Positions 31,908-38,970 of a stretch of 64,000 bases of DNA are shown here, piece by piece. Made by a program: the position numbers and the translations under genes. The notes under the pieces were generated by a model. It made no database searches. It was not told the DNA's origin and saw nothing but the letters and a program-made list of their open reading frames with translations. Position 1 is the first letter of the stretch. Each line of letters opens with the position of its first letter. The stretch comes from Escherichia phage vB_EcoM_PhAPEC2. Location: sequence record NC_024794.1; one strand, given 5' to 3'.

Positions 31908-32189
31908 CTATTTTTCTGAAGCGCCTGAAATATATTTTTCAAGACGTTGTTTCATTAGCGAGCCGTTCTTAGCGATTTCTTCTGGCTTATCGCACATACG
32001 CAACAAGGCTTCAAGCTTAACGATATCGCTGGTACGTTCAAATTTGCGAGTATCTATCTTACTAGCAAGTTCAGAAATACGTGCTAATAGACTTTCAGCT
32101 TCAACCAAAGCTGCACCTAGCTTAGTCGCAAATGTGTCAGTAGCTTCGCTAAGAATAGATTCTGATAAAAATTCACTATATGTTTTCAT
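31908..32189 (-). CDS. ipII: Internal head protein, IPII-like
   Basis: 93 aa from ATG 32189; capsid-targeting-like N-terminus [10 protein letters not shown]; ATGA-coupled to e. Confidence 0.7.
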
Positions 32190-33167: not shown

Positions 33168-33393
33168 CTCGGTCCCATGATTTGGCCATTAATTCGGACA
33201 TAAATTCTTCAATGCGCGTTTCTTTAGACGGACTTTCACTATTAGAGACCGCAAGTTTGTAATCTGCAATAGGACGGAACAAATCAAGGTCCATATTAAG
33301 ATCGTCTTTGATTTTTTCTTCTGACACATCTTTATCGTATGTGTACAGATAACTATCACATGATTCTGATTTAATGTAAATTGCTATACTCAT
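33157..33393 (-). CDS. Hypothetical acidic protein
   Basis: 78 aa from ATG 33393 (MSIAIYIKS...), ATGA-coupled. Confidence 0.4.
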   Translation of the reverse strand: MSIAIYIKSESCDSYLYTYDKDVSEEKIKDDLNMDLDLFRPIADYKLAVSNSESPSKETRIEEFMSELMAKSWDRDDE

Positions 33394-33881
33394 CTCAAAT
33401 TCCTGCATTCGGTAATAAAACGTTCAACTTCATTATTCTTGGCTTTTATCTTGTCTTTATGTTCTTGTAAACTACTTTTAATAAGATTAATAATGATGGC
33501 AGCGGTACCACCGCCAATGATGCCACCAACAACACTTATGATACTAGATGCTAATAAGATAGCAATAATATCAACAAAACCGAAAGAACTCACCTTAGTA
33601 CTAAAAAACCACACTGACGGTACAAATATAATCCATCCTGTTATCCATTGGCACTTATTGAAAAACTTTTCAAGCTCAGCTTGAGTTGTTCGTATTACTT
33701 CATCGATAGGTTGATATCCGTTAATGTATCTGTTCACAATAATACCTGCTGGCTGGTCGATTTTAAATTCTTGGCAAATATGTTTCACTAAGTAGGATGG
33801 ACATCCTGTCCAATCTACTGAATAGTATGAAATACCTTCATTGCCATCGTCTATATTAGACCAATATGTTTTGTTAATCAT
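33390..33881 (-). CDS. Membrane protein, FIKECR-tail family member
   Basis: 163 aa; hydrophobic core, Gly-rich segment, C-terminal ...ERFITECRNLR. Confidence 0.5.
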   Translation of the reverse strand: MINKTYWSNIDDGNEGISYYSVDWTGCPSYLVKHICQEFKIDQPAGIIVNRYINGYQPIDEVIRTTQAELEKFFNKCQWITGWIIFVPSVWFFSTKVSSFGFVDIIAILLASSIISVVGGIIGGGTAAIIINLIKSSLQEHKDKIKAKNNEVERFITECRNLR

Positions 33882-34567
33882 TACCAGCCTTCCATAGGGA
33901 ATTCCAGATAAACTTGAGCATTGACACGAATTTCATTGGTAATCTTTTTAACTCGATCTGTATTACGAGATACACGTCCGAACCAACGCCATCCGTTACT
34001 AATTGCACGAGAACCAGTGTGCCATGTTTGCCAATCAAACTGAAGAAGAGTACGGTCTGGAGCTTCCCATTTCTCTAGTTCGCCTTTTTCGATTTTTTCG
34101 AGGACTTCTTTGTGCCACTGACGATAGATAAGTTCGCCATCAGGAATCTGACTGAACTCTGCAGTTCCTGTTGCAAAATGAGTAGGACACACACCAGCGT
34201 TAACAAGACCAAGAATATGTTCAGAATGGTAACGAGGGTTGTCATAGTCAGGTTGTCCTGCAGTAATAAAGTGTTGACCAACTGGAATATCAGGGCGTGG
34301 TACGTCATCATGGTGATAGCCTGGGATTGCAGGATACCAACCAGGCATCAGCATGTGGACTCGTGAATCAAATACAACCTGGTCGGTGTTCCAATCATCA
34401 GGCAAGTTCATAATGAAAGAGCGAGTAATAGGACCGCCGTTATTATAAGCAAATTCTAAACTACAGTTGAAGAACATAGGCTCGTTCTTGATTTTATCAT
34501 TAGAAATGCTACCGGCAAAACCACCTACTGCACGAGCTTGACTATTAAACACTTTAGAACTATTCAT
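33881..34567 (-). CDS. Hypothetical protein (228 aa), His/Asp-rich putative enzyme
   Basis: ORF with SD GAGGAAA; segments YHHDDVP and HSEH. Confidence 0.55.
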   Translation of the reverse strand: MNSSKVFNSQARAVGGFAGSISNDKIKNEPMFFNCSLEFAYNNGGPITRSFIMNLPDDWNTDQVVFDSRVHMLMPGWYPAIPGYHHDDVPRPDIPVGQHFITAGQPDYDNPRYHSEHILGLVNAGVCPTHFATGTAEFSQIPDGELIYRQWHKEVLEKIEKGELEKWEAPDRTLLQFDWQTWHTGSRAISNGWRWFGRVSRNTDRVKKITNEIRVNAQVYLEFPMEGW

Positions 34568-34568
34568 A

Positions 34569-34874
34569 TTATTTTCCTCGACATTCTTTAATGAAATTTT
34601 CTAGATTGGTAGATTCAATAGCTTTTTTACGAGCTTCTGCGTGTTCTTCTTCAGACAATTTACGTTTATAATTGACCCAGACATTATGGTCTAAACCAGT
34701 TGTGGCATATAATATCAAAGCTCCGACGAATAATAAAAACGGTGATAAAAATATACAACCAGGAACACCATCCATACTGTAAGCCTTTTGTAATACGGCA
34801 ACAGAAAGAGCTGCGTAAAAAAGCGATGCAAATATTGTAAAAAGACCGATTCGGTTGGTTTCGCCTAATTTCAT
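34569..34874 (-). CDS. Membrane protein, FIKECR-tail family member
   Basis: 101 aa; two hydrophobic segments; C-terminal ...LENFIKECRGK. Confidence 0.55.
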   Translation of the reverse strand: MKLGETNRIGLFTIFASLFYAALSVAVLQKAYSMDGVPGCIFLSPFLLFVGALILYATTGLDHNVWVNYKRKLSEEEHAEARKKAIESTNLENFIKECRGK

Positions 34875-34893
34875 AATATTCTCCTCATGTTTT

Positions 34894-34932
34894 AATAGGA
34901 CTACTATAACATAGTCCTATAATTGTGTAAAC
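34894..34932 (-). promoter_or_regulatory. PeSL-like early promoter cassette (TTTACA-N17-TATAGT with 8-bp dyad ATAGGACT/AGTCCTAT)
   Basis: Minus GTTTACACAATTATAGGACTATGTTATAGTAGTCCTATTAAAAC. Confidence 0.5.
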
Positions 34933-34944
34933 AGTTTTGTGAAG

Positions 34945-35901
34945 TTATTTGAAAGGTTTTACCATATGGAAATTTTGTTTGAAACGTTTTACGTAATCGT
35001 CGTGTCCTAAGCTTTGGTACATACTTACAACTTTGCTGTAGTTTTCCCAGGCGTATTCACGGAACCAACCGGAGGTGATGCTTGTGCAGACTTTTTCTAA
35101 TGCCATCATGAAACTGGCTTCAGGGTTAATTTTAAAGTCATTAGGAATCTGAGAACGTTCTAACGCTAGTACACATGATTCTTCGTATACACCGGCCAAT
35201 TTGACCATTTCTGGTAACGATTCGAACTTCTCGCGTGAGGTCATGACTTCAGAACCGTCTTTCATGTAAAACGTATAAGCCGGACGGTCTGTTAGTGCAA
35301 TGGCTTCATGAATAGTATCATGGTCATATGTATAGATGTCATCTTTAAAGAACGCACTTTTAGAAGTGTCAAGAACTGGGTGAGCATAGTTCAAAGTTTC
35401 TTTCTGGCGTTTCAGCATAATTTCAGTAAGTTCATCGTTCAGTGTAACACCTTTACCACGAAGATACTGGATATGGTTCATAGTCTTTAAAAAGAATGGA
35501 TTATTTTTCTTGAAACGATGAGACATTTTAATTGCAAGACATATCTCAGGAGTTGCCCAGTAAAACCCGGTCAAACGATCTTTAGTCAAATTTTTCTTGG
35601 CGTATTTTAAAAGGTCATAAGAAGACGTGAAATCTTCAGGAGTGAGTTCGCCGATTAATTCACGGACATTAGTGATTGCCGGAACAATATACGCTTCAAA
35701 ATGAGTTTCGCGTCCGTTATGGAAGCATTTGAAAACTTGGACATCAGGGTTATCTTGGTGAACATATACACCCATCATTTGATTTTTGAATGCATTCCAA
35801 GAACATTGGTCTGCAATAAAGTCCCAGTCACTATTTTTGATAGCGTTAGAATCAATAAGACCATGATAGTGAAGTGCACGAGAACCAATAACTAACATCA
35901 T
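34945..35901 (-). CDS. Hypothetical protein (318 aa)
   Basis: Long ORF; no motif recognised by eye. Confidence 0.55.
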   Translation of the reverse strand: MMLVIGSRALHYHGLIDSNAIKNSDWDFIADQCSWNAFKNQMMGVYVHQDNPDVQVFKCFHNGRETHFEAYIVPAITNVRELIGELTPEDFTSSYDLLKYAKKNLTKDRLTGFYWATPEICLAIKMSHRFKKNNPFFLKTMNHIQYLRGKGVTLNDELTEIMLKRQKETLNYAHPVLDTSKSAFFKDDIYTYDHDTIHEAIALTDRPAYTFYMKDGSEVMTSREKFESLPEMVKLAGVYEESCVLALERSQIPNDFKINPEASFMMALEKVCTSITSGWFREYAWENYSKVVSMYQSLGHDDYVKRFKQNFHMVKPFK

Positions 35902-35929
35902 AATATTTTCCTCGGATTAATTCATTAAC

Positions 35930-36169
35930 TTAAATTTCACGACATGCGATATTATATTCATCCCAGAGGTCATCATGTGAAGCCTCTACCAATGGAACGA
36001 TTGTACCGTTTATGTCTTCATTATAAGGGCAAATTGTACAGTGCGCGTCTTCGAATCGGATGCCTTTGTGTTCAGATTTTTTATAACGCATATCGAATAT
36101 CTTTGCAAACTTTTCACGAGTAATGGTTTTAGCAACCACTTTGGTTCCAATACTTTCGTAATAAATCAT
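35930..36169 (-). CDS. Hypothetical small Cys-containing protein
   Basis: 79-aa ORF, ATG verified at 36169. Confidence 0.5.
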   Translation of the reverse strand: MIYYESIGTKVVAKTITREKFAKIFDMRYKKSEHKGIRFEDAHCTICPYNEDINGTIVPLVEASHDDLWDEYNIACREI

Positions 36170-36188
36170 TGTGGACTCCGTTTAATTT

Positions 36189-36227
36189 GATAGGACTACT
36201 ATAACATAGCCCTATCTTGTTGTAAAC
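36189..36227 (-). promoter_or_regulatory. PeSL-like early promoter cassette (TTTACA-N17-TATAGT)
   Basis: Minus GTTTACAACAAGATAGGGCTATGTTATAGTAGTCCTATCAAATTAAAC. Confidence 0.5.
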
Positions 36228-36231
36228 TGTT

Positions 36232-36429
36232 TTAGCAAGAATAACTAGATGATACCCAGCCTTGAACAGTGATACTATTGTGGGATAATGAGATCGCGTC
36301 CTGGAGATTCAGACCTGCGTTATCTTCAATCCATAATGTAACTTCTTCGCGTTCTTCTGTTGCAATTTGGAACAGGTTTTCCAGGGCAGCTACTGCCGTA
36401 CGTACAGCACAATCTAATTCACGAGACAT
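36232..36429 (-). CDS. Small protein, WVSSSxxC-tail family member
   Basis: 65 aa ending ...QGWVSSSYSC. Confidence 0.5.
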   Translation of the reverse strand: MSRELDCAVRTAVAALENLFQIATEEREEVTLWIEDNAGLNLQDAISLSHNSITVQGWVSSSYSC

Positions 36430-36438
36430 ATGATTTCC

Positions 36439-36711
36439 TTAACAAGTGTGAGAAGATGCAACCCAACCACCAGTTTCGAGGCTCAGGTTGTAGTCGTATT
36501 GGTAAACGTCGGCCCATTCAGCATAGCCGTTTTTTGTACAACGTTCAAGATCGGCTTTAAGATGTCCTGGTGAATGATAGGTTCCACCCATACCATAAGC
36601 TGGGTACAAGTCGAATGTTGTGTTTTGTTTATCAGCAATTTCTTTGGCAGCCTCAATAGCTGCATAGATTTTTGCTACGGCTTCAGCCAGTTCGGTTTGT
36701 TCTTTAGACAT
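36439..36711 (-). CDS. Small protein, WVSSSxxC-tail family member
   Basis: 90 aa ending ...GGWVASSHTC; shares GGTYHSPG-like motif with next paralog. Confidence 0.5.
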   Translation of the reverse strand: MSKEQTELAEAVAKIYAAIEAAKEIADKQNTTFDLYPAYGMGGTYHSPGHLKADLERCTKNGYAEWADVYQYDYNLSLETGGWVASSHTC

Positions 36712-36720
36712 AATGATTCC

Positions 36721-37026
36721 TTAGCACAACGCAGAAGACGAAACCCAAGCACCTTCAGTAATAACGTAACCATTACCTTCACGCTTAACATCGCCACCAT
36801 TATTTTCAATTTCATCTTTCATCCACTGGGATACGATTTCACCCTTAGGATAATAAGTACGACCGCTACCATAATCACCTACAGAAAATGATACGGCATA
36901 TTGGTCTGCGATCTTTGTTGCTTCTTCTTCGATACGTTCAGCTTGATTCAGAAGTTTATAAATTGCATCTGAAGCGGATTTGGCATCATTAAACTCTGGT
37001 ACTTTAATTTCAATAATCTTACTCAT
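36721..37026 (-). CDS. Small protein, WVSSSxxC-tail family member
   Basis: 101 aa ending ...GAWVSSSALC. Confidence 0.5.
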   Translation of the reverse strand: MSKIIEIKVPEFNDAKSASDAIYKLLNQAERIEEEATKIADQYAVSFSVGDYGSGRTYYPKGEIVSQWMKDEIENNGGDVKREGNGYVITEGAWVSSSALC

Positions 37027-37382
37027 TTTCTACATTCCTTAATAAAGTTTTCAATTGTTTCATTTTCACGTCTAGCTAGGAGTTCATTATAACTAATCAT
37101 TTGAGAAGCGTAAACCTTTTTATTTTTCTTGTTATGGTTTATAAAATCGTAGTAAAAATAGACTACAGTACAAAATGATGCGATGGATGCAAAGGCTTGG
37201 GTGTATCTTAGGTCCTGCCATTGGTCTGTGAATCCACCGGTATTCCCTATAAATCCTAACACAACTCCGTCAATAAGAAATCCAACTAATCCAAAGGCAA
37301 ATCCCATGCCAATACTCATAATAAAAATTAGAATGTTCTCACCAAGAGACGGCCATACGGTTAAGAGTTGAGGCTTTTGCAT
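37023..37382 (-). CDS. Membrane protein, FIKECR-tail family member
   Basis: 119 aa; two TM-like segments; C-terminal ...ENFIKECRK. Confidence 0.5.
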   Translation of the reverse strand: MQKPQLLTVWPSLGENILIFIMSIGMGFAFGLVGFLIDGVVLGFIGNTGGFTDQWQDLRYTQAFASIASFCTVVYFYYDFINHNKKNKKVYASQMISYNELLARRENETIENFIKECRK

Positions 37383-37756
37383 CTTATTTCCTTAACGAAT
37401 TCCATAGCTTCTTCATATTCATATTTTTTAACAGCTTCATCATACTGAGCTTGGGCTTTTGCGCACTGAACTTTCCACTCGCGAACTCGAGCTCTGTGAT
37501 GACGGCCTTGGTGCCAATATCCTGCCCAATTAATAGGCATTAATAAAAACGGTACAATAAGTGGTGCGACGAACATTAATGAAAACGCTGCATCAGACGA
37601 TATAACTTTATTGGAATCTAAAATAGCTCCTATAATCATAAAGATTAAAAATGCTAAAGCTAAAATAGGGCCAAATAGTACTTCGTTTGGGATTAATTTA
37701 CGTTTGTATTCGTATGCCCATGGCTTAATTGGCATGTACAGGGTTGGCTTTGACAT
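37361..37756 (-). CDS. Membrane protein, FIKECR-tail family (divergent; start uncertain)
   Basis: ORF with hydrophobic segments; C-terminal ...EFVKEIRCKSLNS; alternative ATGs at 37786/37756/37735. Confidence 0.45.
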   Translation of the reverse strand: MSKPTLYMPIKPWAYEYKRKLIPNEVLFGPILALAFLIFMIIGAILDSNKVISSDAAFSLMFVAPLIVPFLLMPINWAGYWHQGRHHRARVREWKVQCAKAQAQYDEAVKKYEYEEAMEFVKEIRCKSLNS

Positions 37757-38327
37757 ATTCTCTACATTCCATAATAAATTGCTCAAGGATTAAATTGTTA
37801 GTGAAATTAGGACTAACAACCATAGTTTCATAAAGCGCATCAATAGCACTTAAAGCATCAACTCTTTTAAGCAAAGGCTTGCCTTCATACATAGTTTCAG
37901 AATCGACGATTAACGTAAAGTAATATTTTTTATTATCGACTAGAACTTCTGTGTCGATATAAAACATATTAGACCTCAGAAGCTTATCTCTAAAACCATA
38001 ATAATCTTCTGAACGTTCGCTGATATATTCCAATTCAGTGTTTAAACAACAAACAGACCACGTAGGAGCAACGAAATCAGTGAATCTAATATCATGGTCT
38101 GCAACTAGTTTAGCAATAGCTCCGATATCATGAATCATAATACCTGGGGCTAATAAAGATTTTCTGCTATGGCTAGCAGTTTTCTCAGTGGTCTCATAAG
38201 AAGCTGACCAGTACCATTTACGTCCGGTTGCAACATATCGTAATGAATCAACTAAAGACGTAGGTGGATTTACCTTATCTCGGAACTCTTCGAACATTGA
38301 GTCAATATCATTATTTTGGTTTCGCAT
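37725..38327 (-). CDS. Hypothetical protein (200 aa) with FIMECR-containing C-terminus
   Basis: ATG 38327 with SD AAAGGAG directly after the terminator at 38346-38368. Confidence 0.5.
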   Translation of the reverse strand: MRNQNNDIDSMFEEFRDKVNPPTSLVDSLRYVATGRKWYWSASYETTEKTASHSRKSLLAPGIMIHDIGAIAKLVADHDIRFTDFVAPTWSVCCLNTELEYISERSEDYYGFRDKLLRSNMFYIDTEVLVDNKKYYFTLIVDSETMYEGKPLLKRVDALSAIDALYETMVVSPNFTNNLILEQFIMECREYVKANPVHAN

Positions 38328-38345: not shown

Positions 38346-38368
38346 CAAAAGGAGGACCGGAGTCCTCC
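38346..38368 (-). terminator. Rho-independent terminator (GGAGGAC-N4-GTCCTCC + U-run)
   Basis: Minus GGAGGACUCCGGUCCUCC followed by UUUUGG. Confidence 0.55.
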
Positions 38369-38376
38369 GCATTATT

Positions 38377-38970
38377 TTATTTCAAAGAGTTAATATATTC
38401 TTGTACATCAGCAGAAGTGGTTTCGACACCGGCTGGAGTGCCATTGAACGTTTCAACACGAGTCAGAGTGTCTTCGATATCAACCTTAGTCAGTGCAGCG
38501 ATTTCAATTACATCATCGGCTGTAGAGATACCAAGGGCATTGGCTGCTCGAGTTTCACGAATGTATTCGAGTTTAATTGCCAGGTTCTGACGAGCATCGT
38601 CAAGTTCAACCACCTTACGAGCAATTTCAATTCGCATAGCGGCATACCCGTCGGCTTTTGTATTAAGTTGTTCGGCAGTTCGACGATACAGAAGACCAAG
38701 TTTAGCATGCATAGTAACATCTTGTCCTTCAGCCAGGAGCTTGCGAATTTCACGTTCCTTAGAAGCGGCTTGCTTGTTCTTTTCATTAACAAGTTCGCGA
38801 ATACGTTTTTCTTCATTAATAGATTTAACAGAAGCCGTTTTTAGTTCTTTGATTTGGGTAATCAACTTATCTGCAGCTGCGTTATACTGTTCTTCGACAG
38901 TCAGATTTTTAGCCATAGCAGTACCCAGTTTAGTGCGGATGAATTCAACAAGTTTCTTCAGTGTGTTCAT
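38377..38970 (-). CDS. Hypothetical coiled-coil protein (197 aa)
   Basis: ATG 38970 ([10 protein letters not shown]...); heptad-like charged helical sequence; flanked by strong early promoter and terminator. Confidence 0.55.

Follow-up and report, generated by a model that had tools for sequence, protein, structure and literature searches.

A C-terminal F-I-x-x-C-R tail on otherwise unrelated early proteins of T4-like phages, a possible docking helix for a shared partner

Why should five genes of one small phage region, four of them for membrane proteins, finish with nearly the same few residues shortly before their stop codons? The question is raised by a 64,000-nucleotide stretch of Escherichia phage vB_EcoM_PhAPEC2 (record NC_024794.1), which was analysed as a whole and is called the window here, and in which an initial annotation had noticed the shared ending on five open reading frames (ORFs) and proposed for it either a functional C-terminal module or a conserved recombination site that drives gene shuffling. 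All five ORFs are present on the minus strand with the endings that had been quoted for them; they lie between the tRNA cluster and nudE with the lysozyme gene e, and they match annotated coding sequences in the related phage mogra. Mosigvirus genomes (RB69-like T4-type coliphages, e.g., ST2, JS09, and APCEc01) are 96 to 98% identical to the 5.5 kb around the tail genes, and judged from its sequence the window is that of a Mosigvirus, an RB69-like T4-type phage. The genes, designated g1 to g5, are as follows.

g1: 33390..33881, minus strand; T4 e.2 homolog, phrog_2203; tail codons 33402-33428; ends ...EVERFITECRNLR
g2: 34569..34874, minus strand; 101 residues with two hydrophobic segments, phrog_9798; tail codons 34578-34604; ends ...NLENFIKECRGK
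g3: 37023..37382, minus strand; T4 e.3 homolog, membrane protein; tail codons 37029-37055; ends ...TIENFIKECRK
g4: 37361..37756, minus strand; T4 e.4 homolog, membrane protein with two hydrophobic segments; tail codons 37382-37408; ends ...AMEFVKEIRCKSLNS
g5: 37725..38327, minus strand; T4 e.5 homolog, soluble, 200 residues; tail codons 37761-37787; ends ...LILEQFIMECREYVKANPVHAN

The tail of g4 is a variant in which the Cys is displaced two positions later. The count of four membrane proteins among the five holds, with g1 to g4 each containing hydrophobic, transmembrane-like segments followed by a charged C-terminal stretch of 40 to 84 residues (40 to 56 in g1, g2, and g4) that is rich in lysine and arginine, and with no such hydrophobic segment in g5; in g1 a soluble domain at the N terminus precedes the hydrophobic segments. 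Membership in the T4 e.2, e.3, e.4, and e.5 families is established by homology together with a gene order, e.6-e.5-e.4-e.3...e.2-nudE-e, that the window and T4 have in common. By tblastn and direct comparison, g3 and g5 are 37 to 48% identical to T4 e.3 and e.5, the match of g1 to T4 e.2 is limited to the N-terminal ~45 to 60 residues (37-46% identity), g4 is e.4 by gene order, length, and tail, and g2, a Mosigvirus gene, has no counterpart in the comparison with T4. None of the five has a Pfam match at or above the gathering threshold, and Pfam offers nothing informative for any tail-bearing protein or for the neighboring e.6; the precomputed assignments on database proteins nearly identical to g4 (PF26873, Phage_T4_Y06O) and g5 (PF26876, Phage_T4_Y06P) are families in name only.

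Could such a short resemblance be coincidental? The pattern F[IV]x[ED][CIS]R has exactly five matches in the six-frame translation of the whole 64 kb, all of them in g1 to g5 and each 1 to 11 residues ahead of the stop codon, and a looser pattern, F[IVLM]xE[CIVLM]R, likewise returns exactly five. When residues were shuffled within the 580 stop-to-stop segments of the window, the mean was 0.35 matches, 0.06 of them C-terminal, and the maximum was 1.

The tail was next looked for, and repeatedly found, in the equivalent region of ten more phages, of which nine belong to other genera: JS98 and ABTNLS3 (Dhakavirus), VR7 (Gaprivervirus), IME523 (Kanagawavirus), Potts1 (Marfavirus), PM2 (Mosugukvirus), Mineola (Jiaodavirus), Pet-CM3-4 (Karamvirus), and the Aeromonas phages 65 and avDM2. 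The codon survey of 11 T4-like phages, two of which infect Aeromonas, contains 40 instances, all located 1 to 27 residues from the C terminus, and the tail-bearing groups comprise Mosig-, Tequatro-, Dhaka-, Gapriver-, Kanagawa-, Marfa-, Mosuguk-, Jiaoda-, and Karamvirus in addition to the two Aeromonas phages. There are three to six tail-bearing genes per enterobacterial phage and one or two in each Aeromonas phage, and every carrier lies in the early-gene region on the early-gene strand. From 31 nonredundant tails of eight phages the consensus is hydrophobic(-3)-x-x-[F/W](0)-[I/V/L](+1)-x-x-C(+4)-[R/K](+5), where position 0 is Phe in 29 and Trp in two, +1 is Ile in 22, Val in seven, and Leu in two, +4 is Cys in 26, +5 is Arg in 30 and Lys in one, and -3 is hydrophobic in 27. 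After the Arg there are 1 to 13 residues, often basic; the protein gp395 of Aeromonas phage 65 has 27.

T4 itself carries the tail on e.3 (...EFVIDCRKIK), e.4 (...KFVKESRCKSQS), and e.5 (...KFVKECREYVKAITIPSK), and again in an unannotated frame of 34 residues between e.2 and nudE, called e.2' here (MFIEMPW...NNFITECRKLK). The T4 e.2 gene looks split, since its second hydrophobic segment (MDRIGDWILLTILVNIFTAAVL...) and the tail are found in other frames downstream of the annotated stop; this arrangement is either a decayed full-length e.2 or an unannotated small ORF.

T4 record 67469-67719: split region of e.2, between e.2 and nudE

Across 126 kb of T4, which includes all early regions, the C-terminal core motif on the coding strand is confined to the e.2'-e.5 cluster. 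Wider searches added no carriers. A profile search of 5.8 billion proteins with 47-residue tails recovered only fragments of already known families, and of nine matches at E ≤ 1e-3 to a HMMER tail profile among 1.84 billion representatives, eight belong to known families and the ninth, P0049 (2691 residues, six matched stretches), is presumed spurious; the motif is too short for new carriers to be found by profile search. A related-locus search with g5 returned two loci.

Do the carriers form one family, as the initial annotation supposed in calling them an ORFan family? That description does not stand, because g1 to g5 fall into five different PHROGs, each of unknown function, their bodies are unrelated, and most of them are the known T4 genes e.2 to e.5. 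BLAST comparison of the carriers with their tails trimmed off gave 18 clusters, of which one reflects a spurious match and two proved homologous after all, being the e.5-like proteins of different genera (hhalign probability 97%). Between the membrane-protein families hhalign gave probabilities of 80 to 90%, with only the last 13 to 19 columns aligned in most pairs and 43 columns in the e.3/e.4 comparison; once the tail was removed the probabilities fell below 25%, except for two recent within-phage paralog pairs in PM2. A single paralogous family was therefore rejected for want of body homology beyond the tail in PHROGs, BLAST, and hhalign, with the reservation that the alignments are shallow. 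By these sequence comparisons the tail appears to sit on about 15 protein bodies that have no detectable relationship, though a remote common ancestry of some bodies is possible given that shallowness.

Is it then the peptide or the underlying DNA that is conserved? In between-genus comparisons the nine tail columns are 0.46 to 0.70 identical, compared with 0.20 to 0.35 for the rest of the protein, and in the e.5-like family, with only 17 to 22% overall identity, the F, C, and R of the tail are three of just seven invariant columns. The Arg of the tails is encoded by AGA, CGT, AGG, CGA, CGC, and CGG, the Cys equally by TGT and TGC, and the Phe by TTT and TTC. Identical residues use the same codon 129 times within phages, where 122 are expected, and 1256 times between phages, where 1241 are expected. 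The DNA-level similarity reported initially is thus real, but it is no greater than the shared amino acids imply. Because the tail is better conserved than its surroundings, all synonymous codons are used, and codon sharing equals the expectation from codon usage, selection acts on the peptide, and the proposal of a functional C-terminal module gains support at the level of selection, the tail being the best-conserved part of each family across genera. We consider it likely that the tail is a functional peptide motif.

A second constraint is nevertheless visible in the nucleotides. The genes are tightly packed, and for this reason the tail codons often supply the Shine-Dalgarno sequence of the next gene, either through the K/E-E codons (AAGGAA, GAGGAA) or through an Arg codon of the form AGG or AGA. 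A downstream start was identified for 33 tails, and in 26 of these its ATG is placed -1 to +10 nt relative to the Arg codon. In the window, g1 leaves 8 nt between its Arg codon and the start codon of the next gene, the CGA GGA codons of g2 form a GAGGA Shine-Dalgarno sequence for an ATG 10 nt past the Arg codon, and the ATG that follows g4 overlaps its Arg codon. The Arg is AGA or AGG in 21 of 38 tails, against a background of 28%, a bias that comes mainly from tails with a nearby downstream start. Tail DNA also outlives its protein body, both in T4 e.2' upstream of nudE and in the deletion alleles of g3 considered below. These observations would suit an RNA origin of the motif, in which purine- and A/T-rich codons are selected as the initiation region of the next gene and the peptide is incidental. 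Such an origin would leave several features unaccounted for: F, I/V, C, and R persist whichever synonymous codon is used, even CGT and CGC, neither of which resembles a Shine-Dalgarno sequence; same-codon frequency matches expectation; the motif is no less present when the following start codon is 16 to 61 nt off or when a scan of the ~70 nt downstream revealed none; many overlapping genes of the same operons lack it; and the five window sites share no RNA or DNA structure (folding z-scores of -1.25 to +1.52). We therefore regard a purely nucleotide-level origin as very unlikely. The dual coding is real but does not explain the motif, and it is a secondary constraint at the nucleotide level.

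The other idea of the initial annotation, that the tail is a recombination or cassette-boundary site mediating modular gene shuffling, draws on the setting, a hyperplastic region with genuine deletions and duplications around g3. In phiC120, FL31, and LF82-5 most of g3 is deleted, with only the first few codons and the last ~90 nt kept, and in OLB35 the segment is partly duplicated, which creates a chimeric g3/g4 ORF; g3 (e.3) is dispensable, and the spot is prone to rearrangement. The tblastn matches to the last 30 residues of g3 had been candidates for a tail on a new body, and they were rejected as remnants of these g3 deletions. The junctions of the g3 deletion and of the OLB35 duplication fall outside the motif, and with these junctions and the codon test taken together there is no support for a recombination-site role. 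The setting also contains promoter/stem-loop cassettes called PeSL, which act as shuffling elements of T4-like hyperplastic regions (PMC2839356, PMC4122927), and two near-identical PeSL-like early-promoter cassettes lie within the span of the tail genes.

Approximately 36198-36231, minus strand: PeSL-like early-promoter cassette, with a promoter-like site at 36226-36198
34903-34945, minus strand: second, near-identical PeSL-like cassette, with a promoter-like site at 34931-34903

Each has the arrangement TTTACA-17-TATAGT with an upstream TG and an overlapping perfect hairpin, ATAGGACTA...TAGTCCTAT, and the promoter-like sites are elements separate from the tails. PeSL and tail are alike in being short repeated elements at gene boundaries of the same genome regions. 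The former is intergenic DNA (promoter, hairpin, and Shine-Dalgarno sequence) conserved as nucleotides, whereas the latter belongs to coding sequence, has its conservation in the amino acids, and lacks both hairpin and promoter, and the papers on PeSL do not mention a coding tail (PMC2839356, PMC4122927). An identification of the tail as a PeSL cassette was accordingly rejected, as it is not an intergenic sigma-70-type early promoter plus stem-loop and its copies show no nucleotide conservation. With a common stretch of only ~27 nt, which is degenerate and shows no nucleotide identity beyond what coding needs, a recombination site of any such kind is extremely improbable.

What, then, might a conserved peptide at this position do? 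Residues -3, 0, +1, and +4 would fall on one face of a helix (i, i+3, i+4, i+7), with the Arg at +5 flanking it, and in an AlphaFold2 model of g5 made with 17 sequences the tail lies in a predicted helix of residues 173 to 194. By the positive-inside rule we infer that the tail is cytoplasmic. On this reading unrelated, fast-evolving early accessory proteins, mostly small membrane proteins plus the soluble e.5 family, would have an amphipathic helix at their cytoplasmic C terminus, with the tail forming its end. The hydrophobic face of the tail (-3, F, I/V, C) with the invariant Arg beside it could serve as a docking or address tag that brings different proteins to the same partner. That so many unrelated proteins would carry one short, invariant helix face at their cytoplasmic C termini is what a docking motif for a common partner would lead one to expect, and the case that the tail docks to a shared partner appears to us evenly balanced.

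The tails could instead bind one another, the amphipathic helices zipping into homo- or hetero-oligomers, such as e.5 onto e.4 and e.3, with no hub. The spacing of the hydrophobic residues is heptad-like and the flanks are charged, most phages have several tail-bearing genes, e.5, e.4, and e.3 overlap and are probably cotranslated, and VR7 keeps its tails with neither e.6 nor e.5 in the region retrieved. The ~9 conserved residues would span roughly two and a half turns of helix, a short length for a zipper to be stable, avDM2 shows a single tail-bearing gene, located beside e.6, and an invariant single Cys and Arg would suit specific recognition better than generic coiled-coil packing, so that self-association seems to us unlikely.

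A further alternative is that the tail is a regulatory or turnover tag that sets the level or activity of early proteins by being read by a protease, an adaptor, or an Arg- or Cys-modifying enzyme such as the T4 ADP-ribosyltransferases. The invariant Cys-Arg in an exposed C-terminal segment with basic residues after it, and the restriction of all carriers to the early-gene region and strand, would be compatible with such a tag. The distance of the motif to the C terminus varies, however, and since classical end-dependent degrons need a fixed end, a range of 1 to 27 residues disfavors them; an ssrA-like tag or a ClpX C-motif degron in particular does not fit the 1 to 13 residues that follow the Arg in the 31 tails or the 27 in gp395. 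No known degron or site of modification was found that resembles the tail, and the tag would leave the linkage to e.6, described next, unexplained. We judge it decidedly unlikely.

If the tail is a docking helix, which protein would it dock to? The best candidate would be the product of e.6, the gene directly upstream of g5.

38377..38970, minus strand: e.6 homolog, 197 residues, all-helical, directly upstream of g5
38351..38368, minus strand: GC-rich hairpin with a T run after it, terminator-like, located between e.6 and g5

Of the 11 phages surveyed, all but VR7 (10 phages) have the gene directly upstream of the e.5-like tail gene, and this adjacency holds in Aeromonas phages 65 and avDM2 despite different surrounding genes. 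From coliphages to Aeromonas phages e.6 is 53 to 88% identical, while everything but the tail is hypervariable in its e.5-like neighbor. A single-sequence AlphaFold2 model of e.6 is a long helical hairpin with a predicted local distance difference test score (pLDDT) above 90 for residues 30 to 130, and when it was compared with the PDB by Foldseek the top ten matches were all Vipp1, followed by CHMP1B and PspA (E values of 4e-4 to 1e-2). The e.6 family profile is collinear from residue 1 with two Vipp1 sequences, at nonsignificant E values of 3.3 and 7.6; the Pfam family PspA_IM30 does not match e.6, and sequence searches of the PDB with g5 and e.6 gave nothing significant. On the basis of the modeled fold, e.6 may be a phage-encoded protein of the ESCRT-III/PspA type. 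Separately, the terminator-like hairpin at 38351-38368 splits e.6 from g5 despite their adjacency.

The PspA family offers a precedent for the proposed arrangement. In bacteria its members are usually recruited by small membrane proteins whose genes adjoin their own, as in the case of E. coli PspB and PspC with PspA and of B. subtilis LiaI with LiaH. The layout of the tail region would resemble these systems in that a gene with a predicted PspA/Vipp1-like fold (of the ESCRT-III superfamily) adjoins genes for small membrane proteins that end in a cytoplasmic helix, and the proposed logic is also similar, with membrane anchors recruiting a soluble ESCRT-III-type protein. It differs in that g1 to g5 show no sequence similarity to PspB or PspC and have no Pfam match, and in that a nine-residue motif is shared with soluble e.5 and among ~15 unrelated bodies, all phage-encoded and early. 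That e.6 is the shared docking partner of the tails is a suggestion we make tentatively, and one we consider less likely to be right than wrong.

Several observations weigh against this interpretation or against parts of it. The helix in g5 comes from a poor model (pLDDT 51.6), and the Vipp1/PspA assignment of e.6 comes from a single-sequence model of a simple hairpin with modest Foldseek E values. In the 18 kb retrieved from VR7, e.4, e.3, and e.2 keep their tails and neither e.6 nor e.5 is present, and e.6 is therefore dispensable for short-term retention of the tail. In the window, g1 and g2 are located 4 to 5 kb from e.6. The e.4 family has Ile, Ser, or Val instead of Cys at +4, and it is evident from the surviving remnant tails that expression of the downstream gene depends in part on this DNA. 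The best explanation overall would be a C-terminal helix that docks its carriers to one common partner, for which e.6 is the candidate, and we would put its prospects of being right and of being wrong at the same level. A more elaborate proposal is that T4-like phages encode an ESCRT-III-type (PspA/Vipp1-like) e.6 together with small membrane and soluble proteins that vary from phage to phage and plug into it through the F-I-x-x-C-R helix, the whole forming a system of membrane remodeling or membrane protection in which the adaptors are swapped and the plug stays constant; we think it speculative and rather unlikely as a whole.

Two other classes of short targeting peptide bear comparison with the tail. 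The capsid targeting sequence of T4, MKTYQEF(I/L)xE, is likewise a short address peptide on hypervariable cargo from the same hyperplastic regions, and that of the T4 internal protein IPII, ...EFIAEAR, resembles F-I-x-E-C-R with an Ala where the tail has Cys. It is N-terminal, is cleaved by the gp21 protease, and is carried by packaged late proteins, whereas the tail is C-terminal and mostly on membrane proteins. Four other internal matches to F[IV]x[ED]xR occur in T4 genes, so the resemblance of IPII fits chance, and the sequence I/V/L-x-E, to be compared with the gp21 site (L/I)-x-E, is found in 13 of the 31 tails, the others having D, G, S, Q, N, Y, and more at the last position. As all 40 instances are C-terminal and the IPII likeness is within chance, a capsid targeting role was set aside. 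As an observation in its own right, a small protein encoded at 31908-32189 on the minus strand of the window starts with the kind of capsid targeting sequence that internal head proteins of T4-type phages usually have.

The second class comprises C-terminal helices that target membranes or bind partners, such as the membrane-targeting sequences of MinD and FtsA and the MIM motifs of ESCRT-III proteins. These are similar to the tail in being short amphipathic C-terminal helices with basic residues that function as portable targeting modules. The tail differs from them in its invariant Cys-Arg and its acidic residues, in residing mostly on proteins that are already integral to the membrane, and in having no match to their consensus sequences.

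The region of the tail genes has other features of note. Three tandem small acidic paralogs (36232-36429, 36439-36711, and 36721-37026, minus strand) end in W-(V/I)-(S/A)-S-S-x-x-C right at the stop codon, an ending present in three to six copies in JS98, VR7, IME523, and Pet-CM3-4, and it constitutes a second C-terminal Cys signature in the tail-gene operon. A 228-residue protein encoded at 33881-34567 on the minus strand has no Pfam match yet is unusually well conserved, at ~80% identity between coliphages and Aeromonas phages, and it shares ~30% identity with proteins from phages of Mycobacterium, Gordonia, and Bacillus (465 phage records).

A literature search of incomplete coverage returned nothing relevant on the T4 e.x genes, on a conserved C-terminal motif, or on a phage PspA, and no description of this motif or of e.6 as a PspA/Vipp1-like protein. 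A conserved address peptide on variable cargo is an already known kind of thing; the motif itself, its breadth on unrelated early proteins, and its linkage to e.6 appear to be new. The T4 genes e.2 to e.6 were sequenced decades ago and still have no assigned function, and a strongly selected tag shared by ~15 unrelated proteins provides an experimental handle on them, with one bait peptide and three mutable residues (F, C, and R). The tag would also tie the T4 e.x genes to one conserved neighbor that has a predicted Vipp1/PspA membrane-remodeling fold. Should the e.6 link prove false, the motif would still illustrate dual coding clearly, as the same nucleotides hold both a peptide motif and the ribosome-binding site of the next gene. 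If the link is true, it would show how these phages handle the inner membrane of the host early in infection, and how hypervariable accessory genes stay tied to a conserved core.

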